A DNA stretch of 64,000 bases from Candidatus Bipolaricaulota bacterium. GTDB taxonomy: Bacteria; Patescibacteriota; Patescibacteriia; UBA11705; DATKZF01. Numbering within the stretch: position 1 is the first letter of the stretch; each line of letters opens with the position of its first letter. Made by a program: the position numbers and the translations under genes. The notes below the pieces were generated by a model. It saw only the letters and a program-made list of their open reading frames with translations, was not told the DNA's origin and made no database searches. Positions 709-62,323 of the stretch are shown here, piece by piece. The DNA lies in contig DATKZF010000003.1 of the NCBI GenBank assembly GCA_035528115.1, positions 551,089-615,088 of the forward strand, read 5' to 3'.

Positions 709-903
709 ATGCCAATAGAAAACAGAGACGACATCAAGCCGGGTATGGAGGTGATGATTGTTTTGAAAAAAGATCAGCCCACCGGCGACTTGACTCGAGG
801 AGTCGTTAAAGAAATTTTGACCAATTCCGCTTTTCACCCGCGCGGCATAAAAGTCAGACTTGAAGACGGGCAGGTGGGAAGAGCGCAGGAAATCGTGAAA
901 TAA
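709..903 (+). CDS. YwbE-like small protein (DUF2196 family)
   Basis: 64 aa with KPGMEV..KKDQPTG.LTRGVV..ILT.S.FHPRGIKVRLEDGQVGR, typical of the YwbE family. Confidence 0.55.
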   Translation: MPIENRDDIKPGMEVMIVLKKDQPTGDLTRGVVKEILTNSAFHPRGIKVRLEDGQVGRAQEIVK

Positions 904-931
904 AAAATGCTCGGATCGGGCATTTTTTATT
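903..931 (+). terminator. Intrinsic terminator after the ywbE-like gene
   Basis: Hairpin aaaatgctcgg/atc/cgggcatttt followed by a T-run. Confidence 0.55.
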
Positions 932-966
932 TGTAAAATAATTGATTTTATGGTAATTTTAGAGAT

Positions 967-11077: not shown

Positions 11078-11164
11078 TGGTGCCGCCGGTCGGAGTTGAA
11101 CCGACATGAACGTTAGTTCACACGATTTTGAGTCGTGCGCGTCTGCCAATTTCGCCACGGCGGC
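11078..11164 (-). tRNA. tRNA-Leu (anticodon CAA), type II with a long variable arm; CCA is encoded
   Basis: The reverse complement gives GCCGCCG acceptor, CACGA-cTCAAaa-TCGTG anticodon arm, a long variable arm, and a GTCGG-TTCAACT-CCGAC T-arm. Confidence 0.75.
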
Positions 11165-11402
11165 ATAATGATTTTAAATATTCTTTGCCAATTCCTGATT
11201 TTAGATATTTTTCTCTTTTTCTCGCTTCCTTTCGATTCGCAAATTTTTCTATGGTTATAATTTCAAATGGCATGTACGGTTTGGTGGTTCTGCTTTTTCC
11301 GGTATTATGCTGCCGTATTCTTTTATGTGGATTGATTGCCGTACCTACATAGATATAAGATTTTGATAAACTGGATATAGCGTAAGTAAAGCAATCTCGC
11401 AT
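11118..11402 (-). CDS. GIY-YIG nuclease-domain small protein
   Basis: YIYVGTAINPHKRIRQHNTGK...FEIITIEKFANRKEARKREKYLK is a classic ~85-aa GIY-YIG (URI) domain. The reading frame runs about 47 nt into the tRNA-Leu 5' half before reaching a stop. Confidence 0.6.
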   Translation of the reverse strand: MRDCFTYAISSLSKSYIYVGTAINPHKRIRQHNTGKSRTTKPYMPFEIITIEKFANRKEARKREKYLKSGIGKEYLKSLCRRGEIGRRARLKIV

Positions 11403-11544
11403 ATTTTATTGTCGTGCGCGCCTGCCTGCTCCTCGGGTCTGCCTTCGACGGCCCTGAGGGGCCGCTCAGGCCCTCGAAGGGAGCGACCTCGCCACTCGGC
11501 CGTGAGCTCGTGGCCGAACGGGAGTCGAAGACCGGCAGGCAGGT
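11403..11544 (+). repeat. GC-rich palindromic repeat element (B-module family)
   Basis: cctgcctgctcctcg...ctcgccactcggccgtgagctcgtggccgaacgggagtcgaagaccggcaggcagg, with inverted ends cctgcctgc/gcaggcagg. Related copies are at 20321, 57950 and 62020. Confidence 0.7.
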
Positions 11545-11605
11545 CTGCCAATTTCGCCACGGCGGCCTGCAAACAATATGGATACTATACAGTAAATGAT
11601 GAAAA

Positions 11606-12521: not shown

Positions 12522-13403
12522 ATGATACAAAAAAAAGGCTTGGGCCGCGGGCTGAGCTCGTTGATCCCCAAAAAAGTTTCGCCGGCCATGGTTAAAGAAG
12601 AAAATAAAGATTTGGTATTGTCGCCGTCATCAAAGCAAGTGATTGAAATTTCTCCCGATAGAATAGAACCCAATCCCATGCAGCCGCGGCAAGTGTTCAA
12701 TCATCAGGATTTGGAAGATTTGATGGAATCAATCAAAGAGCACGGCATTATTTCTCCGCTGATCGTCACGAAAGCGGGGGACGGCTATCAATTGATCGCG
12801 GGCGAGCGCCGCTGGCGTTCGGCGAAAATATTGGGAATGGAAAAAGTGCCGGTTATCGTCAGGGAAGCCAGCGAGCAGGAAAAATTGGAATTGTCATTGA
12901 TTGAAAATATTCAAAGGAAGAATTTGAATCCCATCGAAGAAGCGGCCAGTTATCAAAGATTGACCGATGAATTCAATTTGACGCAGGAACAAATCGCCAA
13001 GCGGCTGGGCAAAAGCCGATCGAATATCGCCAACACCATCAGACTGCTTAATTTGCCGCAAGAAATTCAGCGCGCCATTGTGGACGGCAAAATCAGCGAA
13101 GGTCACGCCAGAGTTATCTTGGGTTTGCCCACGGAAAAAGAACAGCTTGATTTTTTGAAAAAAATATTGCAATATAATTTTACGGTCAGAGACGCGGAGA
13201 GTGAAAGCCGAAGAGTTTCGCCGCGAAAACCGAGGCAGTTGCAGAGTCTGAGAGATCCGGTTACTGAAGCGCAGAGAGATGAAATCAGGCAGGCGCTCAA
13301 CACGAAAGTGGATATTAAAAAGCGCGATGGCCAAGGACAAGTCGTCATTGAATTTTATTCCGAAGAAGAATTAAAAGAGATAATCAATAAAATTCGCAAA
13401 TAA
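12522..13403 (+). CDS. parB: Chromosome partitioning protein ParB/Spo0J
   Basis: ParB box GERRWRSAKILG, the HTH region, and its position after parA. Confidence 0.85.
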   Translation: MIQKKGLGRGLSSLIPKKVSPAMVKEENKDLVLSPSSKQVIEISPDRIEPNPMQPRQVFNHQDLEDLMESIKEHGIISPLIVTKAGDGYQLIAGERRWRSAKILGMEKVPVIVREASEQEKLELSLIENIQRKNLNPIEEAASYQRLTDEFNLTQEQIAKRLGKSRSNIANTIRLLNLPQEIQRAIVDGKISEGHARVILGLPTEKEQLDFLKKILQYNFTVRDAESESRRVSPRKPRQLQSLRDPVTEAQRDEIRQALNTKVDIKKRDGQGQVVIEFYSEEELKEIINKIRK

Positions 13404-13412
13404 TTCAATTTT

Positions 13413-13979
13413 ATGAAAACAGCATCAAAAATCTTTTTGGCGGCGTTCATTATTCCTTTGGTGATTTCAGGTTGCAGTTGCTCGAAAAACAATACCTCGA
13501 ATATCGCCGATTTTCAAATCAAGGAACGCGAAGACGTTAAAGACGCGGTCAGAGATTGGGTGGTATTCACCAATCCGGCTTATCGCTATGAACTTCGTTC
13601 TCCGAAAGACTGGACGATTTCCGATGTCAATAAAGACGGAGAGGATGTCAGATTCTATCCGGAGAAAAACGCCATCACCGAAGATTATTTGGGGGATTTG
13701 AGGATTTTGGGCTATACGAATTGGCAGGAACATCTGCCGCTGGATGAATTCATAAAAACCAAAGCCGTTAACAATTATTATCAAATGAGCAACGCGGCGG
13801 ACAGGGAGGAATTAGAATTTCGAGGTTACTACGCCATGAGATTCAAAAATGTTGAACTCAAAAAAGATCAATTCATTGACGTGATCGTGGTGGATACCAA
13901 AGACAGCATAGTGGCCATTGAGCTTCACGGGTCATATGATGTCTTGACCAACATCATCAGCAGCATGTATTTTTATTGA
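13413..13979 (+). CDS. Hypothetical lipoprotein
   Basis: Signal peptide with a lipobox (LVISGCS); no recognisable domain. Confidence 0.4.
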   Translation: MKTASKIFLAAFIIPLVISGCSCSKNNTSNIADFQIKEREDVKDAVRDWVVFTNPAYRYELRSPKDWTISDVNKDGEDVRFYPEKNAITEDYLGDLRILGYTNWQEHLPLDEFIKTKAVNNYYQMSNAADREELEFRGYYAMRFKNVELKKDQFIDVIVVDTKDSIVAIELHGSYDVLTNIISSMYFY

Positions 13980-16795: not shown

Positions 16796-18250
16796 TTAGA
16801 TTGATTTCTTAGTTGAAATTATTTTTTTCCAAGTTTGTTTTTTGAAACTGCCGATGTGAGCCTTGGCGTTTCTGGTTTTAACGAATTTGAGCCATTGCGG
16901 ATTGGGGCCTTTTCTGTTTTTATCGAGAGTGATCTCGACCACATCGCTGTTTTTCAATTTGGTTTCCAGAGGCACGTGAATGTCATTGACGTAAGCGCCG
17001 CCGCATTTATTGCCGACGTCCGAATGGATTTGATAAGCGAAGTCAATCGGCGTGGCGCCGTCCGGCAAATCAATGACATCGCCTTTGGGCGTGAACACGA
17101 AAATTCTATTTTGGAAAAAGTCGATTTTTAATGTTTCCAAAAATTTATCGTCGTCTTTTATTTCTTTTTGCCAATTGGCCAATTCTTTGACCCAGGCGAT
17201 GTCTTTTTCCTTGATGCCTTTTGATTCTTTGTAATGCCAATGAGAGGCAATACCGTATTCGGCCTGATTGTGCATTTCTTGAGTTCTGATTTGGAATTCG
17301 ATCGGTTCTTGATTGTCTCCGAAGACGGTGGTGTGCAGCGAGCGGTAGCCGTTGGGTTTGGGTTGGGAAATATAATCCTTAATTTTGCCTTTGATCGGCT
17401 TCCAGAGACTGTGAATGATGCCGAGCGTGGCATAGCAGTCGGCGACGTCTTTTAAAATGATTCGCGCGGCCACCAGGTCGTAAATGCGGTCAATGTCTTT
17501 GTTGCTTTTCATCAGTTTTCTGTACAAACTGTAATAATGTTTGGTGCGGCCGTAAGCGTCAATGTATTTTATTTTATTTTCGATCAATTTTCGTTTTAAT
17601 TTTTTCAGCATGGCGTCCATGGCGCGCTGTTTGAATTGCAATCTTTTCTTGATCAAATTTTCAACCCAGATGTATTCATCGGGAAAGGCGTATTTAAAAG
17701 ATTCATCTTCGAGTTTGGCTTGCAATTCTCCGATGCCCAGGCGGTTGGCGATGGGCGCGTAAATTTCCAAAACCTCCATGGCGATTCTTTTTTGCTTGTT
17801 GGCGGGCAGGGCGTAGAGAGTGCGCAAGTTATGCAGACGATCCGCGAATTTGATGACAATGACTCTGATGTCTCTGGCCATGGCCACGAACATTTTTCTC
17901 AAATTTTCGACATATCGCTTCATGCCTCGGTATTTGACCGTGCCCAGTTTGGTGACGCCTTCCACCATGCCGGCCACGTCGTCCCCGAAATTCTTTCTGA
18001 CATCTTCCAGCGTGTAGGTCGTGTCTTCGGGCACATCATGAAGCAGGCCGGCGATGATCATGTTGGTGTTGACTTTCAGATCGGCCAGGTTTTGCGCTGT
18101 GGCCAAGGCATGATCGATATAATCCACGCCCGTGGCGCGGCGCTGGCCATCATGCGCTTTTTTCGCGAATTCATAAGCCAGTTCCACCATTTCCAGGTCG
18201 GCTTTGGGATTGTACTTTTTTATGGTTGTGAGCAGTTTTCTAATGGTCAT
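16796..18250 (-). CDS. rel: Bifunctional (p)ppGpp synthetase/hydrolase Rel (HD-Synth-TGS; lacks the long C-terminal regulatory region)
   Basis: Intact HD motif LLHDVPEDT, synthetase motif YRSLHTTV, and a TGS domain. Confidence 0.8.
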   Translation of the reverse strand: MTIRKLLTTIKKYNPKADLEMVELAYEFAKKAHDGQRRATGVDYIDHALATAQNLADLKVNTNMIIAGLLHDVPEDTTYTLEDVRKNFGDDVAGMVEGVTKLGTVKYRGMKRYVENLRKMFVAMARDIRVIVIKFADRLHNLRTLYALPANKQKRIAMEVLEIYAPIANRLGIGELQAKLEDESFKYAFPDEYIWVENLIKKRLQFKQRAMDAMLKKLKRKLIENKIKYIDAYGRTKHYYSLYRKLMKSNKDIDRIYDLVAARIILKDVADCYATLGIIHSLWKPIKGKIKDYISQPKPNGYRSLHTTVFGDNQEPIEFQIRTQEMHNQAEYGIASHWHYKESKGIKEKDIAWVKELANWQKEIKDDDKFLETLKIDFFQNRIFVFTPKGDVIDLPDGATPIDFAYQIHSDVGNKCGGAYVNDIHVPLETKLKNSDVVEITLDKNRKGPNPQWLKFVKTRNAKAHIGSFKKQTWKKIISTKKSI

Positions 18251-18257
18251 AAATACA

Positions 18258-19862
18258 TTATAGCAGACCTTTAAGTTTAAGGTATCTTTTTATCTGCTTT
18301 TCCGCTTGCGGCGTCTTGACGAAATTCAACCAGTCCAGATCCGGGCCTTCCGAATTGATATCGGGAATTATTTCAATCACGTCCTCATTTTGCAGTTTTC
18401 TGTTCAATTCCGCCGGTTGATTGTTGATAATCGCGAATTTGCAGTAATTGCCAAGGTCGCTGTGAATCTGATAAGCGAAGTCCACGGGGGTCGAGCCTTT
18501 GGGCAGGGAAACGGCGTCGCCTTTGGGCGAATAGACGTAAATTTTTTCTTGAAATATTTTGCTGACCTCGTCTTCCCAAACGTTTTTGTGAAACAATGAT
18601 TTGCCCGTGTGGAGAATTTTTTTCGTCCAGTCGTCCTCTGATTCCTTGTTTTTATAAAAAAGCTGGGCGGCAATGCCGAATTGAGCGGAGCGGTGCATGT
18701 CCTTCGTTCGGATTTGAAATTCGGTCAATTGATTGCCGGGCCCGATGATCGTTGTGTGCAAAGTTTGATAGCCGTTTGATTTGGGAGAGGCGATATAGTC
18801 TTTTATTCTTTTGGGCACGGGCGGCCACAATCCGTGAATCAAGCTCAACATTAAGTAACAGTCGTCGACCGAATCGACAATAACGCGCAAAGCAAACACA
18901 TCGTAAATATTATTGAACGTTTTTTGTTTGGTTTTCATTTTTCGGTAAATGCTGTAGTAGTGTTTGAATCGGCCGTTGACATCGCATTTGATTTTCTTTT
19001 CTTCCGCCTCGTTTCTGACGGTTTTGGCGAGTTTGGCAATGTATTTGTCTCGTGTTTTTCTGTCTTCTTCGCCGAAACGTTTTTCGATTTTTTGATATTC
19101 TTCCGGCTGGAGTATGCGGAAGGAATAATCTTCGAGTTGCCAGCGAAGATGCCACACGCCCAGCATGTCCGCGATCGGCGCCAAAATTTCTTTGGCTTGT
19201 TTGGCCACGAGATAGCGATCTTCATCCGGTATTCTTTCGTAATTGATCAGAGAATCAATGGCCGAGGCCATTTTCACCAAAATTATGCGCACGTCTTGAG
19301 ACATCACCAGCAGGATTTCGCGTACATTGCTGTTGAAGCTTTTGGTTTTGTTGGCATAGTGATTGATTTTTTTGTACGTTTGCAAAATGTCCGCTAATTT
19401 TTTTCCCAACTTCTCTTCCACGATTTTGTCGGATTCGGGATTGAGCCGAGAGACATGGTGCAAAAGACCGGTGATAATCGTCAAATGATCCATGCCGGTT
19501 CGGCTTAATATCTCGGCGGTATTCAGGGAATGCCGCATGTATTCGATCTTTTGTATTTCCGAGAAAAGAGCCACGGCCAGATTCAAGGCCATGGCTATTT
19601 TAACGTTTTCTTCGCCGATGAGGGTCTTTATTTCTTTTTCCTTATCGGGATGATTTTTTAATATTTTATGCGCCAGCGCCGCGCCAATGAACCCCGCGCC
19701 GGCTCTGCCGGCCGCCAGCCGGTTCGCCAATTCGATTGTTTGAGATTTATCGTCAAAGCTCAATTCTCCGGCCGCGTTTTGGAAATATTCAAACATTGCC
19801 GAGAGAGCTTCGTGCCCTTCCGGCTTTCTTTCGATATATTCCGAGAGTATTTTGCTTTGCAT
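18258..19862 (-). CDS. relA: RelA/SpoT paralog with a degenerate HD domain (synthetase-only type)
   Basis: HD is replaced by LLHHVSRL (no Asp), the synthetase motif GYQTLHTTIIG is intact, and TGS is present. It sits in tandem with rel. Confidence 0.7.
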   Translation of the reverse strand: MQSKILSEYIERKPEGHEALSAMFEYFQNAAGELSFDDKSQTIELANRLAAGRAGAGFIGAALAHKILKNHPDKEKEIKTLIGEENVKIAMALNLAVALFSEIQKIEYMRHSLNTAEILSRTGMDHLTIITGLLHHVSRLNPESDKIVEEKLGKKLADILQTYKKINHYANKTKSFNSNVREILLVMSQDVRIILVKMASAIDSLINYERIPDEDRYLVAKQAKEILAPIADMLGVWHLRWQLEDYSFRILQPEEYQKIEKRFGEEDRKTRDKYIAKLAKTVRNEAEEKKIKCDVNGRFKHYYSIYRKMKTKQKTFNNIYDVFALRVIVDSVDDCYLMLSLIHGLWPPVPKRIKDYIASPKSNGYQTLHTTIIGPGNQLTEFQIRTKDMHRSAQFGIAAQLFYKNKESEDDWTKKILHTGKSLFHKNVWEDEVSKIFQEKIYVYSPKGDAVSLPKGSTPVDFAYQIHSDLGNYCKFAIINNQPAELNRKLQNEDVIEIIPDINSEGPDLDWLNFVKTPQAEKQIKRYLKLKGLL

Positions 19863-19973
19863 ATTTATGTTTCCATTATAACAAATTTACAGAGATGTCA
19901 AAGGGAAAAGTCAATAATTATTAAAAAACAGCTTAAAATCGATGGGAGGCATTGTTTTGCGATTTATAAACAT

Positions 19974-20002
19974 TGACAAAATTAAAAATGTTTGCTATAA
20001 TA
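19974..20002 (+). promoter_or_regulatory. Perfect-consensus sigma70 promoter (TTGACA-17-TATAAT) driving a short transcript
   Basis: ttgaca aaattaaaaatgtttgc tataat. No protein-coding gene lies downstream. Confidence 0.55.
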
Positions 20003-20008
20003 CATATG

Positions 20009-20085
20009 TTGATGTTTTGGGACAGTTCCCAATGACGCGAACACTCCTTGTGCGTTTTCCTGCAAGGAGTGTTTTGTTTTAAACG
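20009..20085 (+). ncRNA. Candidate small RNA, possibly encoding a leader peptide (9-codon ORF MLMFWDSSQ), ending in an intrinsic terminator
   Basis: The consensus promoter immediately upstream is followed by the stem aacactccttg/caaggagtgtt and a ttgtttt T-run. Confidence 0.35.
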
Positions 20086-20300
20086 TTACAAATTCCAGCA
20101 GCTGATAAGCTAGCCTTGGTTTTAGTTTTTGTGAGTCGTTACGAATGATTACAAATACGTTTACGTTACGAATTATTGCGGCTATTTAGCTATCCTTAGC
20201 GTCATATTTATTACAAATACGTTACAAATTCCAGCAGCTGATAAGCTTGCCTTGGTTTTTGGCTTTGTGAATCGTTACGAATAATTACAAATAATGGGCG
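20060..20300 (+). repeat. AT-rich tandem repeat array (ccagcagctgataagc... and gttacgaat units)
   Basis: Two ~140-bp direct repeats: acaaattccagcagctgataagcttgccttggtttt...tgtgagtcgttacgaatgattacaaat. Confidence 0.6.
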
Positions 20301-20304: not shown

Positions 20305-20450
20305 CGTTGTCATCTCGACCGCCTGCCTGCTCCTCGAGTCTGAGCTCGCCACTCGGCCGTGAGCTCGTGGCCGAACGGGAGTCGAAGACCGGCAGGCAGG
20401 AAGTCGTCCGAAGCCGCGGCGAAGGATGACGAAGTGGAGAGAGCTTTTCC
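20305..20450 (+). repeat. GC-rich modular element, full A-B-C copy (MITE-like)
   Basis: Module A cgttgtcatctcgacc, module B palindromic cctgcctgc...gcaggcagg, module C aagtcgtccgaagccgcggcgaaggatgacgaagtggagagagcttttcc. Confidence 0.7.
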
Positions 20451-20635
20451 ATCTTGATTAAAAAGATTTATTCATTTTTTTTTCATGAATCGCGTTTTAT
20501 CAACACGGCGATTGGTTTTCAATCAATGATTTGCTAAAATATACGCGAGGGCCGCCGGAAACCCTAGCATCAACAATGTCATTGGGGTTACTATCCGGCA
20601 CCCTCACTTTCAAAATAAAAAATAAAAAATAAAAT

Positions 20636-20680
20636 ATAAAAAAATTGGAGTCCCTTGGCGGGACTTTTTTGTTTTTAAAA
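20636..20680 (+). terminator. Intrinsic terminator-like hairpin (agtccc ttggc gggact plus T-run)
   Basis: Hairpin followed by ttttttgttttt. It may terminate an unannotated ncRNA from the 20.45-20.64 kb region. Confidence 0.4.
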
Positions 20681-20699
20681 TGGAAAGAGGAGTTTTAAA

Positions 20700-20800
20700 C
20701 GCTTTGCCACTTTGCGATTTCCCGCCCGCCTGTTGGCGGATTTTTATTGTAATGACGGAAAGGGGGCTCGGGAAATAAAAAAGAGGCGATTGCCTCTGAT
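20700..20800 (+). repeat. Left ~100-bp direct repeat flanking the 20808-22326 cassette; contains a bidirectional terminator hairpin
   Basis: gatttcccgcccgcctgttggcgg...aatgacggaaagggggctcgggaaataaaaaagaggcgattgcctctgattttt matches 22355-22480 at roughly 80% identity. Confidence 0.6.
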
Positions 20801-20807
20801 TTTTTTA

Positions 20808-21209
20808 TTAAGAAATTTTTGATAAGTCCCCGCCTAAAACAATCGGTCGCATGGCTTTGATTTCGTCGGCATAACTCGTCTCGGGAATGTCATTAAGTAA
20901 AAATATTTTTTTGTTCAATACGTGCGCGAAGCCCATTTCCAGAAACGAATTGCCGCCGATGTAATTTTTGATATTGTTTTTATCCGCATTGACCACCAAG
21001 ATGGCGTCGCCTTTTTTTATTTCATTATAATAATGCCTGATCAGGTCGTGATCGATTTTATTTTGGATGGATTCATGGCTGGTCTCGCCGGGCTTGCCGC
21101 CGGCGTATTTTTCCGCGCCCCGCGGCAGAGTCGTTTGATGGCCCATTTGATTCAGTTGTTCGGCAATGTCCAGCATTTGTTTGGACGCGGACATGCTGCC
21201 GCGGTGCAT
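20808..21209 (-). CDS. Rossmann-like SLOG / nucleoside 2-deoxyribosyltransferase-like protein
   Basis: GDAILVVNAD...GGNSFLEMGFAHVLNKKIFLL resembles the D..GT.FE.G.A motif of the NDT/LOG (SLOG) superfamily. Confidence 0.35.
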   Translation of the reverse strand: MHRGSMSASKQMLDIAEQLNQMGHQTTLPRGAEKYAGGKPGETSHESIQNKIDHDLIRHYYNEIKKGDAILVVNADKNNIKNYIGGNSFLEMGFAHVLNKKIFLLNDIPETSYADEIKAMRPIVLGGDLSKIS

Positions 21210-21263
21210 AGGAGTTTTGTGGGAAAGGTGAAATATTTTATATTGAAATTTTTTGTAATAATC

Positions 21264-21896
21264 TTAATAAAACTTAAAAGCAGTATGGGGTTGTGATAGT
21301 TTATCGAGATACTCATCAATATCCTCAATCAAAATTTTATTATCAATATTTTTAGATTTAAGCAAATTAGTAAAGCTTTTGTTTATAATATGGGATGAGC
21401 CGCAAATAAATAGAATTATTTTGTTCTCATTTAGTGACTTGCTTAACTGATTAAGCCAATGGTTTTCTCTCTTAGACCAGAATCCTTTTTTGGATTGATA
21501 TTGATAAATCAATTCATTCGTTGTTTTGATATAAATTTTTTTAGCACGGAGTTCGTTTTTAAATGTGTTATATTCTTTTGAAATTTCATTAGGATCAATG
21601 AGCATTCCTATTCTTTGTCTTTCCTGCTTGTCCATCTCGCAAAAAAGATGTTTGATGTCCGTGCCATTATTTATTAACTCATTTACAATCTTTTGACATG
21701 TGGATTCTTTTTCCCCGTCGCTGAGAGACTCTTGATTAAATTCCTCCGCCAATACTTGAATCTGGTATTGTTTGACGAGGTTTTTAATGGTTTTCTCAAA
21801 AGGTGCGTTCAATGTTGAAATATGTTGATATTTATGATCTACTCCGATTAAATAAAGCATAATTTCATTATTCCTCATTAAAGAAATTTTTTCCAT
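21264..21896 (-). CDS. Hypothetical protein, possibly TraB/GumN/Tiki-like
   Basis: Spaced G.DH (LIGVDH), AEE and GSSH (ICGSSHI) motifs are reminiscent of the TraB/GumN family. Very AT-rich. Confidence 0.3.
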   Translation of the reverse strand: MEKISLMRNNEIMLYLIGVDHKYQHISTLNAPFEKTIKNLVKQYQIQVLAEEFNQESLSDGEKESTCQKIVNELINNGTDIKHLFCEMDKQERQRIGMLIDPNEISKEYNTFKNELRAKKIYIKTTNELIYQYQSKKGFWSKRENHWLNQLSKSLNENKIILFICGSSHIINKSFTNLLKSKNIDNKILIEDIDEYLDKLSQPHTAFKFY

Positions 21897-22284
21897 ATTT
21901 GTCTTCCAGCCATTTATCCGCACTTTCATTGGATTCTTCAATGTTTTTACTTTCAACCTCTTTCATTAAGCGTTTTAACATCCTGTAATTTTTGTAGTAG
22001 AAAATATTAATCAATTCTTCTTTTTTGATTTTAAAATCCCGCTTGTTGTCGTACTCTTTTTCGATGAGAGCAGTTAAGGCCATCAAATATTCCGGATCGC
22101 TCGAAACAAAAGCTTCTTTGATTTTAGATAGATCCCGTTGATTTATTTCATTCTCTAACGCCACTCTTGTAATGGTGATTTCGCTTTGGTCAATAATATG
22201 GTTTTTTAACAGAATTTTTTCATAGCGGGAAATTAGAATTGTTAAAAATGAAAGCAAGTTATTATTCATTGTTGATTTAAACAT
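21868..22284 (-). CDS. Hypothetical protein
   Basis: ORF only. Its 3' end overlaps the start of the downstream gene, suggesting translational coupling. The start could be as far out as 22326. Confidence 0.3.
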   Translation of the reverse strand: MFKSTMNNNLLSFLTILISRYEKILLKNHIIDQSEITITRVALENEINQRDLSKIKEAFVSSDPEYLMALTALIEKEYDNKRDFKIKKEELINIFYYKNYRMLKRLMKEVESKNIEESNESADKWLEDKYGKNFFNEE

Positions 22285-22354
22285 AGTTGATTTATTATTT
22301 GTGATTTTGTGTCTATAGATTACCAAAATCCTAACCCAACGTCAAAACCGAGCC

Positions 22355-22480
22355 CTGCCATGTTGAGATTCCCGCCTGCCCGCCTCAGGCGGGATCAAGT
22401 CGGGAATGACTGAAAAAAGGGAATGACGAAAGGGGCTCGGAATTGGAAATAAAAAAAGAGGCCAAGAAGGCCCCTTGATT
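22355..22480 (+). repeat. Right ~100-bp direct repeat flanking the cassette; includes the topA terminator hairpin
   Basis: gagattcccgcctgcccgcctcaggcgggat...aatgacgaaaggggctcggaattggaaataaaaaaagaggccaagaaggccccttgattt. Confidence 0.6.
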
Positions 22481-22500
22481 TGGAAAAAAGAAACTGGAAA
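22440..22500 (-). terminator. Intrinsic terminator of topA (minus strand)
   Basis: Minus-strand hairpin aggggccttcttggcctct followed by a T-run. Confidence 0.55.
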
Positions 22501-22583: not shown

Positions 22584-24809
22584 TTATGACTCCGCCATTT
22601 CCGTATGCTTGCACTCTTTATTCGAACACCTGATGGTGCCCTTCGCGCCGAAGACCAGCTGGGAGCCGCAGTCCGGGCATTTTTTGTCAACCGGTTTTGA
22701 CCAGAACGCGGTTTTGCATTCCGGATAATTGGAACAGCCGTAGAAAGTCTTGCCGCGTTTGGATTTTCTTTCGATAATATCTCCCTTGCCGCAATTAGGA
22801 CATTTGACTCCGGTCGGTTTGAGTATGGGTTTGATGTTTTTGCATTCCGGATATTTCGAGCAGCCCAAAAATTTTCCATAGCGGCCGTGCTTGACCGTCA
22901 TGGGCGCTCCGCATTTGTCGCATTTTTCATTCGTGGCTTCGGTTTCTTCCTGAACTATTTCGGTACCGTTCGAAGAGACGATGTTTTTCGTGTTTTTGCA
23001 TTCGGGATAATTCGAGCACGCCAGGAATTTGCCGAAGCGGCCCATCTTAATGATCATGGGCGAGCCGCATTTTTCGCAAACCTCTTTAGTCTCTTCCTCA
23101 GTGATTTCTTTTTTGGAAATCTCTTTGTCTTTTTTGGTCAGATTTTCTTTGAACGGCGTGTAGAATTCTTCGATCAAGGGCTGCCATTCCTTTTTGCCTT
23201 CGGCTATGTTATCCAAGTCTTCTTCCATATGAGCGGTAAAGTCGTAATCAACAATTTGGGGAAAATGCGCCACCAAAAGATCATTGACCACGAAAGCGAT
23301 GTCCGTCGGAGCCAGTTTGCGGTCTTCTTTGATGACGTAATTTCTGTCTTGGATGGTGGCAATCGTCGGCGCGTAAGTCGAAGGCCGGCCGATGCCGCGC
23401 TCTTCCAGCGCTTTGACCAGAGTGGCCTCGCTGTAGCGGGCCGGCGGCTGAGTGAAATGCTGGAGCGGCGAGATTTCTTTGGCGTCCAGGTCGTCGCCTT
23501 CGCTGAGCGCGGGCAACAGAGTTTCTTGGGCTTGCGCGCCGTAGATTTTTTGCCAGCCGTCGAATTTGATCTGCGCGCCGCTGGCTCGGAAAACATATTC
23601 GCCGTCCTTGCTTTCGATGTCCACCGAAGTTTGGTTGATTTTGGCGTCGGCCATTTGGCCGGCCAGCGCCCGTTCCCAAATCAATTTGTACAACTTGTAT
23701 TGATTATTATTTAAAAAATTCTTGATTGTCTCGGGTTCGCGTCCGGCTACTGTCGGCCTGATGGCTTCGTGCGCTTCTTGCGCGCCTTTTGATTTTTTGT
23801 AAGTTTTGGCTCCTACCGCGAGATATTCTTTGCCGAATTTTTGGGAAATGAAATCTTTGGCGTCTGATTTGAATTCTTCCGACAAATTCAAGGAATCCGT
23901 TCTCATGTAAGTGATCATACCGGCTGATCCCTCGGAGCCGAGCTCGATTCCTTCGTAGAGCTGCTGGGCCAGCATCATGGTTTGCTTGGCGGAAAAATGC
24001 AGTTTGCTGTTGGCGTCTTGCTGCAAGGTCGAAGTCTTAAAAGGCGCCGGCGCTTTTTTCGTTGTTTCTTTGAGCTCTATTTTCGAAACTTTATAATTTT
24101 GATCTTTGAGTTTGTCCAGGATTTCTTTGGCTTGCTTTTCGTTTTTAATGTCCAGCTTCTTCAATGTTTTGCCATTTATGATATGAAGCTTGGCCGGAAA
24201 TTCGTTTTTATCTTTGCTGAAAATAGCTTCGATCGTCCAGTATTCTTCTTTTTTAAATGCTTGAATTTCTCGTTCGCGTTCGACGATCAATCTGACGGAC
24301 ACGGACTGAACGCGTCCGGCCGATAATCCCTTGGCCACTTTTTTCCATAAGAAAGGGGAGAGCTCATAGCCGACCAGTCGATCCAAAATTCGGCGCGCTT
24401 GCTGGGCGTTCACCAGATTCAAATCAATGGTTCTGGGCGTTTGCAAAGCTTTTTCAATGGCCGCTTTGGTGATTTCGTGAAATGTTATTCTTTCCGATTT
24501 GTTTTTTTTGGGTTTTAAAATGTGCGCCAAATGCCAAGCAATGGCTTCTCCTTCGCGGTCTTCGTCAGTCGCGAAATAGATCATGTCCGCTTTCTTGGCC
24601 GCTTCCTTTAATATTCCCACATTCTTTTTGGCTTTGGGCGGGATAACGTATTGAGGTTCGAAATTATGTTCGATGTCCACGCCCATCTTGGTTTTCGGCA
24701 AATCTCGGACATGTCCGAAAGAAGACAGAATGGTGTATTCGGCTCGAGGCAGAAATTTGGTGATGGTTTTGGCTTTGGTCGGGGACTCGACTATGATTAA
24801 ATTCTTCAT
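22584..24809 (-). CDS. topA: DNA topoisomerase I with C-terminal zinc-ribbon repeats
   Basis: TOPRIM N-terminus (IIVESPTKAKTI), type IA core, and repeated C..C..C..C zinc ribbons. Confidence 0.9.
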   Translation of the reverse strand: MKNLIIVESPTKAKTITKFLPRAEYTILSSFGHVRDLPKTKMGVDIEHNFEPQYVIPPKAKKNVGILKEAAKKADMIYFATDEDREGEAIAWHLAHILKPKKNKSERITFHEITKAAIEKALQTPRTIDLNLVNAQQARRILDRLVGYELSPFLWKKVAKGLSAGRVQSVSVRLIVEREREIQAFKKEEYWTIEAIFSKDKNEFPAKLHIINGKTLKKLDIKNEKQAKEILDKLKDQNYKVSKIELKETTKKAPAPFKTSTLQQDANSKLHFSAKQTMMLAQQLYEGIELGSEGSAGMITYMRTDSLNLSEEFKSDAKDFISQKFGKEYLAVGAKTYKKSKGAQEAHEAIRPTVAGREPETIKNFLNNNQYKLYKLIWERALAGQMADAKINQTSVDIESKDGEYVFRASGAQIKFDGWQKIYGAQAQETLLPALSEGDDLDAKEISPLQHFTQPPARYSEATLVKALEERGIGRPSTYAPTIATIQDRNYVIKEDRKLAPTDIAFVVNDLLVAHFPQIVDYDFTAHMEEDLDNIAEGKKEWQPLIEEFYTPFKENLTKKDKEISKKEITEEETKEVCEKCGSPMIIKMGRFGKFLACSNYPECKNTKNIVSSNGTEIVQEETEATNEKCDKCGAPMTVKHGRYGKFLGCSKYPECKNIKPILKPTGVKCPNCGKGDIIERKSKRGKTFYGCSNYPECKTAFWSKPVDKKCPDCGSQLVFGAKGTIRCSNKECKHTEMAES

Positions 24810-25170: not shown

Positions 25171-26427
25171 TTAAAAGCTTTTTCGGTTTTGCAAAATCCA
25201 TTCCTCCGATATCCAGGACTTTCTCAGCTCGCCGCAAAGAAAAGTGGAGCCGGTGATCAGCAGAAGTTGATTTTTTGAAAGATTCTTTTTCGCGGCGTCA
25301 AAAGCTTGCCATGGATCGAGAAACGCGCGGCACTTTGTTTTCGGCCAAACTTTTTTGACGGTTCTTTGAATTTCAAAAGGATTAATGGCCTGCCTTTGCT
25401 CGACCAAAAATCTGGTGGCGAAAATCTCGCAGTCGAAATTATCCAAAAGCGGTTTTAAACAAGCTTTGATATTTTTGGGAGAAGACAGAGCAAAAATAAT
25501 TTTGAGCCGTTTGGCTTTTTGAGTGTTTAATTTTTTAGACAAATATTTTATTTTTTCCGGATTATGCGCCGAATCAATGATGACGAGCGGATTTTTTTGT
25601 ATGATTTCAAATCGGCAAGGCAGTCCGGATTTTTTTAAGCCTTTCTCAATGAACTCGTCATTGATTTTCAAATGTTTGGCGATTGAAGATGCCAGCGCTT
25701 GATTGGGCTTGTCTTTGAATTTTACTTCAATCAATTTTGACTTTGTTTTTTTTGCTTCGTTTTCAAAAATTTTCAAAAACGTTCGATTCTTTTCTGTCGT
25801 AAAGCAAGTGTTTCGGTGAATGATGCCCGCTTTCTCGAAAGCCACGTCGGTTAAAGTCGGGCCGATGATGTGGAGGTGGTCATGGCCGATATTGATGATG
25901 GCCGCGATGTCGATTCGACTCATGGCATTGGCCGCGTCATGACGTCCGCCGCAGCCGACTTCGACGATTATGTAGTCGCATTTTTTTTCTTTGAAATACA
26001 TTAAGGCCAGCAAAGTGAAAATTTCAAAAAACGAAGGCAGATCAAATTTTTGAAAACATTTTTCAATGATCGGTTTCATTCTTTCAACCAGCCGCGCGAA
26101 TTCATCGGGCGAAATGTATTTGTCGCCGACTTTGATTCGTTCAATGGCGGTCGTTGAATGCGGAGAATAATAGGCGCCGACGTTTTTGCCCGCTTCAAAC
26201 AAAATTTGGCGCAAGGCGTCGACTGTCGAGCCTTTGCCCGAGGTGCCCGTGACCACGATTATTTTTTTCGCTGACTTTTCCGGATTGCCGGCCAATTTGA
26301 AAAGAGTTTGCGCTCGCTTCAAATAATGTTTGGGATCGGCGCAGCCCGAAAAAAAAGCGTCTTTCTTGATGTTGGACAAGGAGATGAGGTAATCTAGCGC
26401 TTGATTGTATTTTTTGTATGGAGTCAT
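25171..26427 (-). CDS. folC: Folylpolyglutamate synthase / dihydrofolate synthase (Mur ligase family)
   Basis: P-loop VVTGTSGKGST and Mur ligase middle and C-terminal domains. Confidence 0.75.
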   Translation of the reverse strand: MTPYKKYNQALDYLISLSNIKKDAFFSGCADPKHYLKRAQTLFKLAGNPEKSAKKIIVVTGTSGKGSTVDALRQILFEAGKNVGAYYSPHSTTAIERIKVGDKYISPDEFARLVERMKPIIEKCFQKFDLPSFFEIFTLLALMYFKEKKCDYIIVEVGCGGRHDAANAMSRIDIAAIINIGHDHLHIIGPTLTDVAFEKAGIIHRNTCFTTEKNRTFLKIFENEAKKTKSKLIEVKFKDKPNQALASSIAKHLKINDEFIEKGLKKSGLPCRFEIIQKNPLVIIDSAHNPEKIKYLSKKLNTQKAKRLKIIFALSSPKNIKACLKPLLDNFDCEIFATRFLVEQRQAINPFEIQRTVKKVWPKTKCRAFLDPWQAFDAAKKNLSKNQLLLITGSTFLCGELRKSWISEEWILQNRKSF

Positions 26428-26541: not shown

Positions 26542-27636
26542 TCATGATTTAACAAACATCTGATTGCCCAAATCCCTGATCAAGCCTTTCATTTCCATTA
26601 TAGTCACATTCGCGTTTATTTTGGAAGCGGGCAGGCCGGTCAGTCTGGAAATTTTATCGATGTGAATCGGTTCGGATTTTAAAATATTCCAAATCAGTTT
26701 TTCTTCAACGGACAAATCGATTTCTTTTTTTCGTTCGACCAATTCTTCTATTTTTTCCATGTTCAATTCATCGAGAATGTCTTTGGTGGAGGTGGTGGCC
26801 TTGGCGCCTTGCTTGATCAGGTTGTTCGGCCCCAAGCTGGTCGGCGAATTGATCGGACCGGGCACGGCGAAAACTTCCCGATTTTGATCCAAGGCGTATT
26901 TGGCCGTGATCAAGGCGCCCGAGGTTTCGCCCGCTTCGACCACCAAAGTGCCCAAGCTCAAACCGGAAATGATTCTGTTTCTGGCCGGGAAATTGTGCGA
27001 AAGCGGCAAAGTGCCGATGGGAAATTCCGAAACGATCAGGCCGTTGTTTTCCAAAATCTGTTCGGCCAAATATCTGTTTGATGTCGGATAAATGTTGGCT
27101 TTGTCAAGACCCGATCCCAAAACCGCGATGGTTTTTCCAGCATGATCGATGGTGGTTTTGTGCGCCAGTGAGTCAATGCCCAGAGCGAGTCCGCTGACAA
27201 TGGTCAGATCATTTTTTATCAATTCAACAATCAAGTCCGGCAGGATTTGCCTGCCGTAATTGGATATTCTTCTGGTGCCGACCACGGCGAGGCAGTTGGT
27301 TTTTAGTAAATTCAGATTGCCTTTGTAAAATAAAAGAGCCGGATGATTATGAGCTTCTTTGAGCAAATCCGAATAAGCTTCGCTGTTCGAGGTGATGACT
27401 TTCAGGCCTTCTTTATTTAAAAGTTCGAGTTCTTTGTCCGGGTCAATCGAGTTTCTTTGAATAACGAATTCTTCGGCGATGTTTGGCGCCAGGCCGGAGA
27501 AAATCAAATCGGACAGTTCGCCTTGGAACGCGTCTTTGTAAGACGGAAAATACGTCATCAAACATTTCAGACGCGCCGCGCCGATTTTTTGGAACCTGAC
27601 AATGCCAAGTAAATATTTGAGTTCTTCTTTCAGCAT
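26542..27636 (-). CDS. dprA: DNA processing protein DprA (Smf)
   Basis: Rossmann-like DprA core (VVGTRR.S.YG, GLALGIDS.AH) plus a C-terminal winged-helix domain. Confidence 0.8.
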   Translation of the reverse strand: MLKEELKYLLGIVRFQKIGAARLKCLMTYFPSYKDAFQGELSDLIFSGLAPNIAEEFVIQRNSIDPDKELELLNKEGLKVITSNSEAYSDLLKEAHNHPALLFYKGNLNLLKTNCLAVVGTRRISNYGRQILPDLIVELIKNDLTIVSGLALGIDSLAHKTTIDHAGKTIAVLGSGLDKANIYPTSNRYLAEQILENNGLIVSEFPIGTLPLSHNFPARNRIISGLSLGTLVVEAGETSGALITAKYALDQNREVFAVPGPINSPTSLGPNNLIKQGAKATTSTKDILDELNMEKIEELVERKKEIDLSVEEKLIWNILKSEPIHIDKISRLTGLPASKINANVTIMEMKGLIRDLGNQMFVKS

Positions 27637-28227
27637 AAAGTTATTTTAATTTATCACAAATTTTTGAAATTACAAATAATTACGAATTGAGTTATCTAAG
27701 CTGAAGCGTTTGTATTGACAATTCCAATAAGCTTGTGCTATTTTAATCATGCGCACGCGGCTGGGTGCGCGATGTCAGCTTTCCTGCGAATCGGCCGAGG
27801 ACGATTCGCAAGCTGCGCCAGCGCCGCAAACATCCGCCTCTACCCACATCGTTTTTCCCTCTGGGGCCTCGGCCTTCTGAACCCGCTCGACTCTCATGTC
27901 TTGCGGGTTCTGTCTTTTAAATTACAAATAATTGGGTCGAAGAGGAGAATCTATGTTTTGGTTTAACTGTTTTGTCAGTAATCGGTAAACAGTAAGCCGT
28001 CAAAATGACACAGAAGAGCAGAGAGTCGAGCTCTCTGCTGGGATAGATAAAAAAGGTGTTTTGTTGGTTTATTTATTTCCTAGCGGAAAGCTTGCCTTTC
28101 CGCTCATCCCGCCAATTGACAGAACAAAAAAATCGAGCTAAGTTGAAATCGACATTGGTTCCTTTATATATAGAGAACAGCAATTTACAGGAAACACGTA
28201 AATTTAGATGAAAAATCTCTTCAAGTA

Positions 28228-31167: not shown

Positions 31168-31620
31168 TTACAAATTACGAATAATTGCATCGAATAGGAC
31201 AAGCTTGGTTTAGGTTTATCTGTTTGCTACGAATTGTTGCTTCTATGTAGCTTGCCTTTGCCTTGAAATTACGAATAATTGCATCGAATAGGACAATCTT
31301 GGCTTTGGTTTAGGTGACTTATTACAAATAATTACGAATGAGGCGGGAAAGTTGATGGCTACTTAAAAAGCTAATAAGCTACAACCTATTACAAATAGTT
31401 GCGTCTGGCAGGACAAGCTGTGTTTAGACCTTAACGTTTATTGCGAATAATTACAAATGGTTACGAATTACAATAGACTATTCAGCTTTCAGGTTATTTG
31501 TTACGAATTACAATATTCTCAGGCATAAAGTTATAAGTTAATGTACTTTGTAACAATACAAATAAAGAGCCATTTAGTGAATGTAATTCGTAACGACTCC
31601 CCGGCTTCTCTGTTTCATGC
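31168..31620 (+). repeat. AT-rich tandem repeat array (attacgaataattgcatcgaataggacaagcttgg... and gttacgaattacaat units)
   Basis: Multiple 45- to 110-bp direct repeats that share blocks with arrays at 35900, 54400, 57440 and 60560. Confidence 0.65.
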
Positions 31621-35899: not shown

Positions 35900-36230
35900 T
35901 TTTTATCTTCATTATGGAAATATTACGAATTACAATATTCTATTTAGCTTTCAGGTTATTTGTTACGAATTACAAGATTCTGTTTAGCTTCTATGTTATC
36001 TGTTACGAATTACAATATTCTATTTAGCTTCTATGTTATTTGTTACGTATTACAATCGACTATTAAGCTTTCAGGTTATCTGTTACTAATTACAATCATC
36101 TATAGCTATATGCCTTAGAATCTTGTACTTCGTAACGATCGTTTCTAAGCCAAATGGAACCTTGTACTTCGTAACAATATAAATAAAGAGCTATTTAGTG
36201 AATGTAATTTGTAACGACGCGCGGCGTTTG
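35900..36230 (+). repeat. AT-rich tandem repeat array (gttacgaattacaat units of ~45 bp)
   Basis: About six tandem units. It ends with the conserved block aataaagagctatttagtgaatgtaatttgtaacgac, which is also present at 31560-31600. Confidence 0.7.
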
Positions 36231-45412: not shown

Positions 45413-45479
45413 TGTTGTCATCTCGACCGAAGTCGTCCGAAGCCGCGGCGAAGGATGACGAAGCGGAGAGATCTTTTCC
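45413..45479 (+). repeat. GC-rich element, A-C copy (lacks the B module)
   Basis: tgttgtcatctcgacc followed by gaagtcgtccgaagccgcggcgaaggatgacgaagcggagagatcttttcc. Confidence 0.65.
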
Positions 45480-54399: not shown

Positions 54400-54720
54400 T
54401 TTGAATATTACGAATCTCTACTTCCGATAGGACAAGCTAGGTTTAGGTTTATCTGTTTTGGTTACGAATTACTAAAGCTGTTTAGCTTGCCTTGGCCTGG
54501 AAATTACGAATCTCTACTTCCGATAGGACAAGCTATGTTTAGGTTTAACTGTTTTAGTTACGAATTACTAAAGCTGTTTAGCTTGCCTTGGCCTAGAAAA
54601 TCGCGAATATCTATTTAAATTAGGACAAGCTAGGTTTAGGCCTTGTTTGTTTTGTTACAAATACAGAATTCCAAATAGCTTAGCTTGGCGATGAAAGCTA
54701 CGAATAATCTTTTTATTAAG
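54400..54720 (+). repeat. AT-rich tandem repeat array (~120-bp units, reverse orientation of the 60640-61070 array)
   Basis: The unit attacgaatctctacttccgataggacaagctaggtttaggtttatctgttttggttacgaattactaaagctgtttagcttgccttggcc is repeated. ggacaagctaggtttaggccttgtttgttttgttacaaata is the reverse complement of the units at 60700. Confidence 0.7.
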
Positions 54721-57439: not shown

Positions 57440-57660
57440 ATTGTTACGAATTACAATCATCTAGTGGGCCGATTAATATATGTTACAAATTACATTCATC
57501 CATGGCTTTATGTTTGAGAATCTTGTAATATGTAACAAATAACATAGAAGCTAAATAGAATCTTGTAATTCGTAACAAATAACCTAAAAGCCAAACAGTC
57601 GATTGTAATTCGTAACAGATAACCTAGAAGCTAAATAGAATTTTGTAATTCGTAACAATA
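57440..57660 (+). repeat. AT-rich tandem repeat array (reverse orientation, cttgtaattcgtaacaaataacct... units)
   Basis: About four ~45-bp units. Confidence 0.65.
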
Positions 57661-57867
57661 TGAATAATATTGAAAAAATAGTCGTCATCTCCATCTTAAC
57701 CGTTTCCGCCGCCGCGATCGGCGCCAGCGTTTATTTTTGGCGGGACTCGAGAATAGCCGAATCCAATGCTCGGCAAGAGCGATCAACGATGTTGGAAAGC
57801 TTGTCGAATGAGGAGTGATATTATGAAGCCGGGATTGAGGTTGAGGTGTAGAAGATGGAAATTATTT

Positions 57868-58063
57868 TTGTCATTTCGACCGACGACGATAGGAGGAGCG
57901 GAGAAATCTGCTTAAAAGGAGATAGCAGATCTCTCCACTTCGTCATCCTTCGCTAACGCTTCGGACGACTTCCTGCCTGCCGGTCTTCGACTCCCGTTCG
58001 GCCACGAGCTCACGGCCGAGTGGCGAGCTCAGACTCGAGGAGCAGGCAGGCGGTCGAGATGAC
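57868..58063 (+). repeat. GC-rich MITE-like element, reverse-orientation full copy bounded by 13-bp terminal inverted repeats
   Basis: ttgtcatttcgacc at the left end and ggtcgagatgacaa at the right end enclose the reverse complement of modules C and B. Confidence 0.65.
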
Positions 58064-62300: not shown

Positions 62301-62323
62301 ATTCCAAGTCCCGGTAAATTTCT

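Follow-up and report, generated by a model that had tools for sequence, protein, structure and literature searches.

How did three small genes come to lie between topA and a RelA/SpoT gene, framed by two imperfect direct repeats, in a small genome of Patescibacteria (the candidate phyla radiation, CPR)? The DNA analyzed here, a 64-kb stretch that we call the window, belongs to a 604-kb contig of the JGI metagenome 3300031565, and its sequence is also present in NCBI, ENA and Logan assemblies. An earlier note on this DNA had read the three genes as an inserted cassette or excisable island. Our analysis favors a mosaic islet in a horizontal-transfer hot spot, bracketed by a terminator/hairpin module that was duplicated locally, and we put the probability of this reading at roughly 0.55. 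On this reading the locus is an ordinary acquired islet, not an active excisable, mobile or defence cassette, and nothing about it is categorically new.

On the minus strand, the genes follow the order dprA, a Mur-ligase-like gene, topA, the region of the three genes (g3, g2 and g1) and two tandem RelA/SpoT paralogues, of which the one next to this region is called relA1. The list of open reading frames (ORFs) agrees with the earlier note in placing three minus-strand genes between the repeats. The repeats and genes are as follows.

22345-22481, minus strand, repeat R (137 nt, from gapped local alignment)
21868-22284, minus strand, g3, a 138-aa ORFan starting at ATG 22284 (the mechanical ORF starts from TTG 22326)
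21264-21860, minus strand, g2, 198 aa, a predicted member of the Tiki/TraB/GumN/ChaN/EreA-like hydrolase superfamily
20808-21209, minus strand, g1, 133 aa, with a nucleoside 2-deoxyribosyltransferase (NDT)/DNPH1/MilB fold
20697-20802, minus strand, repeat L (106 nt, from gapped local alignment)

The repeats are two copies of a terminator/hairpin module

Repeats L and R were compared by gapped local alignment, because a global MAFFT alignment of the two was poor (60% identity) owing to indels. The local alignment contained 88 matches, 15 mismatches and 37 indel positions in 14 gaps, giving an identity of 85% over aligned pairs and 63% with gaps counted; the imperfect direct repeats of about 80% identity that the earlier note had seen flanking the block were thus recovered. 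Exact matches extend over about 10-12 nt at most, and the two terminators have different stems (GGGGCC versus AGAGGC). The alignment scored 33.5, against 11.0 ± 2.0 with a maximum of 23 in 1000 dinucleotide shuffles, and it still scored 19.5, against 8.6 ± 1.6 with a maximum of 16, when the terminators were removed. Both scores exceed every shuffle, and the repeats are therefore real and above chance.

Further copies were sought in the window and in a comparison set of 80 genomes with a TopA relative, which are designated below by L numbers. No third copy was found in the 64-kb window, where no other tile scored near the two, and a 20-mer core allowing 3 mismatches had no match there owing to indels. 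An nhmmer profile of L and R found no copy in the 80 related loci; its marginal match at window positions 801-941 was rejected as merely another terminator. A pattern scan of metagenomes, in a collection that lacks the source contig, returned 60 single matches, none of them related to the composite L/R element.

The earlier note was also right that each repeat contains a terminator hairpin, which is followed by a T-run and lies at 20782-20797 in L and at 22456-22476 in R. The R hairpin and T-run read on the minus strand as the topA terminator, and the hairpin is called as a terminator on that strand only, though an A-run precedes it. The L hairpin, AGAGGC-AATC-GCCTCT, scores as a terminator on both strands. 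Beyond the terminator, R continues with CGAGCCCCTTTCGTCATT, the duplicated word GTCATTCCC and then a palindrome like the dRS3/NTS repeat of Neisseria, ATTCCCG-N26-CGGGAAT at 22368-22407 (chance expectation 0.06), whose loop of 26 nt holds an inner hairpin, CCCGCC-TCA-GGCGGG. The palindrome is followed by GAC on the plus strand (GTCATTCCCG on the minus strand), which makes it a dRS3-type palindrome with the oriented flank CGTCAT. The ends of R, CCGAGCCC and GGGCTCGG, can pair with one another. In L, the terminator is followed by CGAGCCCCCTTTCCGTCATT, then CCGCC-AACA-GGCGG, then GCGGGAAATC; this copy retains CGTCATT, the inner CCGCC/GGCGG hairpin and the last of these words, and has lost one palindrome arm. 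Beyond the terminator, the two copies have in common CGAGCCCC(C)TTT(C)CGTCATT and then the palindrome.

By sequence, then, L and R are each an intrinsic terminator joined to a degenerate dRS3/NTS-like palindrome (CGTCATTCCCG...CGGGAATC), L being what reads as a decayed version of the NTS-like unit that R also carries. They have the derived inner hairpin and the terminator frame in common and therefore look like duplicates of a composite module, not independent insertions of a short unit. The derived inner hairpin is absent from a simpler unit at the corresponding locus of the relative L004, and L and R are each other's closest relatives. A third hairpin lies beyond L:

20649-20665, minus strand, terminator-like hairpin GTCCCGCCAAGGGAC with a T-run, orthologous to L004 13333-13460 (score 43)

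It marks the point where the conserved backbone towards relA restarts.

The palindromes resemble dispersed repeats of other bacteria

The published NTS is CGTCATTCCCGCGMAVGCGGGAATCYRG. In Neisseria, SsnA, a single-strand nuclease of the GIY-YIG type, targets the dRS3/NTS repeat; copies of this repeat have been reported to lie around important genes in pathogenic Neisseria, to be enriched near isolate-variable genes and to be targeted by a phage recombinase (PMC11893778). The window copies share with this repeat the palindrome core ATTCCCG...CGGGAAT, the 5' flank CGTCAT and the 3' flank ATC, and they are likewise extragenic and placed on both sides of genes that vary between relatives ('NTS-gene-NTS'). 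In contrast to the Neisseria repeats, they are degenerate (R through its 26-nt loop and extra hairpin, L through its lost arm), number two per 64 kb instead of hundreds per genome, are each fused to an intrinsic terminator and belong to another phylum.

The published pattern of the Ssn-related motif (SRM), HGTCWYN(0-2)YYVSBRHN(0-5)WNVSBRGN(0-2)RNCYNB, was searched as a regular expression and had 0 matches in the window. The same expression returned six convincing hairpins in Patescibacteria relatives, all canonical NTS/SRM hairpins.

L026, 12133-12160, canonical NTS/SRM hairpin
L061, 12229-12256, canonical NTS/SRM hairpin
L066, 731-758 and 4460-4487, canonical NTS/SRM hairpins
L032, 557-590, canonical NTS/SRM hairpin
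L056, 3795-3822, canonical NTS/SRM hairpin

One example reads TGTCATTCCCGCGCAGGCGGGAATCC. Apart from a T for the leading C in all four, the L061 hairpin and both L066 copies match the NTS core exactly and the L026 hairpin matches it in all but the last base. L066 carries two copies of a composite of about 110 nt, one of which directly follows topA (85 nt).

The window units also recall the REP/BIME palindromes mobilised by RAYT transposases, which are likewise short imperfect palindromes just after terminators and occur in either orientation and in composite arrangements, such as the L066 composite. They differ from these in their very low copy number in the visible 64 kb, and no RAYT turned up, no search aimed at RAYT having been made.

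The best placed of the alternative explanations, in our view still an unlikely one, builds on these likenesses. L and R would be independent insertions, or remnants, of a dispersed REP/NTS-like mobile hairpin, and their flanking of the genes would be incidental to the genes' arrival. Palindromic units of this type are indeed widespread, as the canonical hairpins in L026, L061, L066, L032 and L056 illustrate, and the tail GGGAATGACGAAAGGGGCTCG, a widespread short motif, is also found in unrelated contigs from metagenomes. In L004 the unit runs opposite to the window copies, as expected of insertion in either orientation, and the window genome has other dispersed repeat families. However, just two copies exist in 64 kb, and these sit exactly at the borders of the anomalous block; moreover, their likeness spans the terminator flanks and the derived inner hairpin, so that duplication of the whole module looks likelier.

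Only two of the three genes are compositionally foreign

The earlier note had described three very AT-rich genes, a description that fits only g2 and g3. These have 30.5% GC each and GC contents at third codon positions (GC3) of 0.32 and 0.36, whereas g1, at 45.5% GC (GC3 0.57), has a native composition; the window average is 45.1% GC, and topA and relA1 have 47.3% (GC3 0.575) and 44.9% GC (GC3 0.557), respectively. Given this split, the foreign block contains g3 and g2 only.

21240-22330, compositionally foreign block, 29.7% GC, containing only g3 and g2

The lower edge of this block is the damaged 5' end of g1. Since g1 combines a native composition with a damaged 5' end, the region between the repeats is a mosaic of at least two events. 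A search for target-site duplications at the edges of the AT-rich block found just a 7-mer. A 23-nt likeness between the 3' end of g1 and the sequence upstream of g1 (20803-20825 versus 21236-21258, 78%) was rejected as too AT-rich and too short. The stop-free runs of g2 and g3 (232 and 153 codons) exceed the maxima of 1000 block shuffles (154 for the longest and 102 for the second longest run), and both ORFs are therefore considered real.

g1 is a truncated NDT-fold gene

The g1 family is large, with 3,464 matches at E <= 0.001. Most of the 120 proteins listed have a length of about 137 aa, and all taxon-bearing names among the 120 are Patescibacteria save the window's own copy, which is deposited as Bipolaricaulota. 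All g1 homologues begin MKIVICGSM, whereas the window ORF begins MHRGSM. The upstream in-frame sequence at 21210-21263 reads ..YKIFHLSHKTPMHRGSM and has no start codon; the frame from the stop to the called Met is *DYYKKFQYKIFHLSHKTPMHRGSM, with about 8 extra residues, and the g2 stop lies in the same frame. As the first strand has no start codon, the annotated 133-aa g1 lacks beta-1 of the Rossmann-like core, and the gene is probably decaying.

In an AlphaFold (AF2) model built from 52 sequences, the mean predicted local distance difference test score (pLDDT) of 10-residue blocks was 74-97 at residues 31-151 and 69 at residues 21-30; the upstream in-frame YKIFHL scored below 50. The top 15 Foldseek matches in the Protein Data Bank (PDB) were all NDT, the CMP N-glycosidase BcmB or DNPH1, with MilB lower, at probability 1.00. 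DprA, a SLOG member, appeared only at ranks 24, 37 and 47, and there were neither LOG matches by fold nor Pfam SLOG-clan matches for g1. Of the SLOG/NDT-like Rossmann protein proposed in the earlier note, the NDT half therefore stands, and SLOG is a remote neighbour.

Against the NDT family PF05014, g1 scored 14.0 bits and missed the gathering cut-off of 28.8. Ten of 12 g1 family members matched PF05014, all below threshold (best E 1.6e-4), and the homologue P0052 has a precomputed PF05014 match. The protein thus shares with the PF05014 NDT/DNPH1/MilB-BcmB family the fold and the motif G-G-N-S-F-L-E-M-G-F-A, and differs from it in its sub-threshold Pfam scores and in the loss of the N-terminal MKIVIC strand and start codon. 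The motif contains an invariant Glu, which we take to be at the position of the catalytic Glu of the NDT family. Three g1 homologues were viewed in their surroundings, which hold aminoacyl-tRNA synthetase genes, or arrays of NUDIX, MazG, histidine-phosphatase, small-kinase and NDT genes. These settings point to a nucleotide-salvage or house-cleaning role for the family, not to a conflict system.

g3 and g2 form a probable operon, and g2 belongs to a small family of predicted hydrolases

The mechanical ORF of g2 starts at TTG 21956, yet its homologues begin MIYLIGVDH or MKIFLIGVDH. In most of the 150 listed matches, and in every one of the best, the alignment begins at residue 13-14 of the 210-aa query, and for this reason we place the start at ATG 21860. 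This codon lies 7 nt past the g3 stop (21868-21870) and has GAGGA upstream. The two upstream genes are therefore adjacent and do not overlap, contrary to what had been noted before, and this spacing suggests that g3 and g2 are probably co-translated. No homologue of g3 was found in the database search, in which its sole match was g3 itself; for lack of a homologue of g3, no conserved three-gene unit can be recognized.

An indexed search found 3 relatives of g2, whereas an exhaustive search found 368 representative clusters (50% identity level), mostly of 150-200 aa. In an alignment of 54 family members, H9, Q12, E39, E40, E132, W135, G154 and H157 are invariant and G6, H71, C74, R81 and R131 nearly so. 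The family therefore has two GxxH motifs (G6-H9 and G154-H157) with conserved acidic and Arg residues. The structural model of g2 had a mean pLDDT of 92.9. Its best PDB match in Foldseek was ChaN (2g5g) at probability 0.93, but with an E value of 0.019 and a TM score of 0.44; HopBA1 (5t09) and the EreA-like 2rad were also among the matches, with weak scores. Pfam matches of the homologues (DUF5694 in 8/54 and TraB_PrgY_gumN in 5/54) were all below threshold, and a sequence-profile search of the PDB with g2 gave no match.

On the strength of the motifs and of the sub-threshold ChaN and Pfam matches, g2 is predicted to be a small hydrolase of the Tiki/TraB/GumN/ChaN/EreA superfamily, and the TraB/GumN-like protein suggested by the earlier note is accepted at this superfamily level. 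It shares with Tiki, TraB-PrgY-GumN, ChaN and erythromycin esterase the two GxxH motifs and the conserved Glu and Arg; in contrast to them, the family is much smaller (170-200 aa) and all its matches fall below curated thresholds. Since no Pfam family covers g2, the gene in effect represents a small family that is still undescribed.

In three other contigs, a g2-family gene is the downstream member of a two-gene unit (L083 215-1184, L084 894-3154 and L152 458-1755). The upstream partners are a zinc-ribbon protein, a GHKL/HATPase_c_3 ATPase and a DUF4190 membrane protein, which are unrelated to g3 and to each other. With their changing partners, these units resemble modular two-component systems.

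The gap between topA and relA is a variable slot

The conserved genes around the islet are listed below.

26542-27636, minus strand, dprA
25171-26427, minus strand, Mur-ligase-like gene
22584-24809, minus strand, topA
18258-19862, minus strand, RelA/SpoT paralogue 1 (relA1)
16796-18250, minus strand, RelA/SpoT paralogue 2

dprA lies directly upstream of topA in most of the 80 relatives, and in 47 of them the DNA fetched includes a relA after topA on the same strand. The topA-relA gap measures 2721 bp in the window and 64 to 4752 bp in these 47 relatives (<300 bp in 21, >=1 kb in 14), and g1, g2 and g3 are absent from the vicinity of topA in all 80. The gap is a recurrent landing place in this clade. 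With the genes absent from this site in the 80 relatives and two of them foreign, the idea of an insertion survives; that of one three-gene cassette does not.

Of the relatives, L003 is the closest (81% TopA identity). Its gap of 892 bp holds just one terminator, at the homologous position, and no cargo. The terminator flanks are as in the window, with ATTTCTAATTTCCAGTTTC upstream, then AAATCA-hairpin-T7AT.TT.CC. This gap is too diverged from the window to act as a clean attB. The backbone towards relA1 is common to the window, L003 and L004 and comprises a T-run hairpin, a hairpin element of about 70 nt and a small RNA (sRNA)-like unit.

A bracketing test was applied to the window and to 22 relatives with gaps over about 500 bp, in which the first 170 nt after topA were aligned, with gaps, to the remainder of the gap and 100 shuffles served as the null. 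The topA-proximal sequence had a second copy in the window (z 6.4), L004 (z 7.5) and L064 (z 4.9) and in none of the 20 other relatives. In L004, the terminator and about 45 nt recur 726 bp farther downstream, with two small ORFs in between; in L064, it is a 37-nt terminator that recurs, 2.2 kb farther downstream, and two paralogous genes on the reverse strand lie in between. The bracketing repeats are unlike in sequence between the lineages and were therefore made locally rather than brought by a common element. A repeat in L009 was rejected as low-complexity AT that was significant neither by blastn nor by the gapped test, and the GAGGC hairpins of L037 and L071 were rejected because they are not terminators.

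At 13333-13460, L004 also has a tandem duplication of a 64-nt terminator unit (98% identity), with no cargo between the copies, which is orthologous to window 20617-20665; a run of N follows, an assembly gap that suggests more copies are possible. This cargo-free duplication indicates that terminator units do duplicate locally. The distal terminator of L004, T1' (AGAGGC..GCCTCT), aligns with window L at a score of 26 (shuffle maximum 23), and the proximal terminator stems of both genomes are GGGGCC/GGCCTC. The NTS-like unit of L004 follows another GAGGC..GCCTC terminator (13206-13277) and immediately precedes the T3 hairpin, a place equivalent to that of L in the window; this simpler unit, AGATTCCCGATCAAGTCGGGAATGAC, has 18 nt identical to window R, but inverted. 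The likenesses of the terminators give a thin hint that the two-terminator slot may predate the split of the window and L004 genomes.

A history of the islet

In the history that we favor, the topA-relA intergenic region would be a variable cargo slot between conserved core genes in this clade. The module at the 3' end of topA, a bidirectional intrinsic terminator with a dRS3/NTS-like hairpin, would have been duplicated locally in the lineage of the window, and foreign DNA would now lie between its two copies. g1 may represent a native-like NDT gene whose start was clipped by the later insertion of the AT-rich g3-g2 operon. Copy R would terminate topA, copy L and the third hairpin would terminate the cargo, and together the terminators would insulate topA and relA from the insert. 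We infer this order of events and this insulating role, together with acquisition by recombination or transformation without a dedicated recombinase.

Horizontal-transfer hot spots and minimal mobile elements hold variable genes between conserved core genes, which are exchanged by homologous recombination. The window agrees with them in the conserved topA and relA flanks, in contents that vary by genome over 64-4752 bp and in an islet without mobility genes. It differs in that the slot is also bounded by a duplicated terminator/hairpin module, and exchange by transformation is here inferred.

Several observations weigh against this history. Bracketing repeats occur in just 2 of the 22 relatives, and the pattern is not general. 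The orthology of the window and L004 terminators is suggestive, being drawn from 6-bp stems and A/T flanks. For g3, no strong promoter of the sigma-70 type was detected, and the top candidate (TTGACG-17-TAATCT, 22347-22319) falls below the scan threshold. Finally, integration of the Campbell type would give the same picture as an order in which duplication came first and cargo later.

Integrative elements, conflict cassettes and integrons

After the dispersed hairpin, the alternatives rank in the order attL/attR and then conflict cassette. In the former, L and R would be the decayed attL and attR sites of a non-autonomous integrative element that might still be excised in trans: a small circle carrying a copy of the topA terminator would have integrated there by site-specific or Campbell-type homologous recombination. 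As in islands borne by an integrase, direct repeats bracket foreign genes next to the 3' end of a conserved gene; the genes are absent at this site in relatives, and the element would restore the terminator of topA, as islands that target tRNAs do for the tRNA 3' end. dRS3 as a phage-recombinase target in Neisseria (PMC11893778) and the analogous brackets in L004 and L064 would also fit. In contrast to such islands, no recombinase (tyrosine, serine or DDE/Piv type) was found in the block or within +/-10 kb by Pfam annotation of every called gene, and the three cargo proteins had no recombinase matches. The borders have no long identical core (15 mismatches and 14 gaps over about 105-135 nt, with stems GGGGCC versus AGAGGC), and the cargo, mixed in composition and including a truncated gene, does not form a coherent element. 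Identical topA, g1 or relA1 occurs in eight contigs, which come from several samples and all have the same arrangement and carry the block, so the comparison with an empty site that had been proposed yielded no empty-site variant. The excisable island of the earlier note is not borne out by a site that shows no recombinase within +/-10 kb, has old, indel-rich repeats and is occupied in 8/8 contigs, and we consider the attL/attR explanation improbable.

That the three genes would act together as a conflict or defence cassette, made of a nucleotide-modifying Rossmann enzyme, a TraB/Tiki-like hydrolase and a partner, is very unlikely. The tight spacing of g3 and g2 (a 7-nt gap), with their probable co-translation, and the placement of g2-family genes after differing partners in the two-gene units of three other contigs are what such a cassette would show. 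g1, however, belongs to a housekeeping-type family of 3,464 matches, three homologues of which lie in core or nucleotide-hygiene contexts; here it has neither its start nor its first strand and is unlike g3 and g2 in composition, and g3 has no homologue. PADLOC returned no credible match: g1 matched only Cas10d, at chance level (E 0.003, 14.5 bits), and g2 and g3 matched nothing. PHROGs gave no informative match for the cargo proteins, and no phage, plasmid or viral relatives were found in INPHARED, PLSDB and IMG/VR. The suggestion of a nucleotide-based conflict system accordingly finds no support.

An integron-like gene cassette bounded by attC sites can be dismissed: the bounding repeats are imperfectly palindromic and a single ACCCAAC/GTTGGGT site occurs at 22334-22340, but this site is unpaired, L has none, neither repeat holds paired RYYYAAC and GTTRRRY cores, no IntI-type integrase lies nearby, and the repeats bear functional-looking terminators and an NTS-type palindrome instead.

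Other features of the window

Within the topA-relA gap, a hairpin element of about 70 nt, GTGAGGGTGCCGGATAGTAACCCCAATGACATTGTTGATGCTAGGGTTTCCGGCGGCCCTCG, lies at 20527-20614 on the minus strand, upstream of relA. It is 91-92% identical (BLAST) to L003 10565-10650 and L004 13603-13690, where the surroundings are unalignable; its folding z-score is -4.2 and it has no Rfam match. From these data it is a candidate structured RNA upstream of relA. An sRNA-like unit at 19967-20092 on the plus strand is divergent from relA1. It has a perfect promoter, TTGACA-17-TATAAT (12/12, with TG), a TTGGGA..TCCCAA hairpin and a terminator at 20039-20074, and its conservation extends to L003 and L004, where changes in the stem of the terminator are compensatory, and, less strongly, to L017, L054, L038 and L037. 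The words TGTTGATG and CCCAATGAC are common to this unit and the hairpin element. The two RelA/SpoT paralogues at 16796-19862 are in tandem and 38% identical to one another; both occur only in the window, L003, L004 and L057, and the remaining relatives with a relA homologue after topA have the second paralogue type only.

A GC-rich long-hairpin repeat of about 140 nt, which looks MITE-like in sequence, is present at 20306-20445, 57927-58066 and 62016-62094 (96-99% identical), with further copies at 45429-45479 and 11465-11543 (the latter 81% overall and 98% over 59 nt). The copy at 20306-20445 lies inside the topA-relA gap and is absent from L003 and L004, indicating that this gap has been struck repeatedly. 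Many intergenic sites also hold repeat arrays with periods of 40, about 96-103 or about 136 nt, built on TTACGAATTACAA or TTGTAAT..TCGTAAC boxes, and similar boxes occur upstream of relA1 in L003.

20083-20293, box-repeat array
27919-27965, box-repeat array
31172-31600, box-repeat array
35923-36220, box-repeat array
54402-54690, box-repeat array
57483-57697, box-repeat array
60592-61106, box-repeat array
62047-62341, box-repeat array

The window contains a single GIY-YIG gene.

11123-11404, minus strand, single-domain GIY-YIG nuclease ORF (PF01541, E 1.4e-15)

Among solved relatives, it is closest to SLX1 and UPF0213, and no NTS-like units flank it. The last codons of this ORF run into tRNA-Leu(CAA) at 11078-11164, and a second copy of the 5' half of this tRNA, at about 11546-11569, is interrupted by the GC-rich hairpin repeat. 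In its sequence, the segment 11078-11580 resembles an insertion of the homing type in which part of the tRNA was duplicated.

Implications

A more speculative proposal, which we regard as quite doubtful, is that in Patescibacteria terminator-linked dRS3/NTS-like hairpins mark exchangeable cargo slots beside the competence-linked dprA-topA cluster and that a small single-strand nuclease of the GIY-YIG (Ssn-like) type, by acting on the hairpins while DNA is taken up, governs the swapping of cassettes. If this were true, NTS/Ssn-type control of transformation would extend to the CPR, and the window and L004 would have retained the same two-terminator slot with different cargo.

The locus mainly corrects annotation, namely the start of g2, the truncation of g1 and the number of foreign genes, which is two and not three. 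Beyond this, it indicates that dRS3/NTS hairpins of the Neisseria type are present in Patescibacteria, where some of them are fused to terminators and border variable genes, and it defines g2 as a predicted branch of the Tiki/TraB/ChaN/EreA hydrolase superfamily, small and so far undescribed, that comprises 368 representative clusters. For this clade, the topA-relA gap emerges as a recurrent landing site that also holds two well-conserved non-coding elements.

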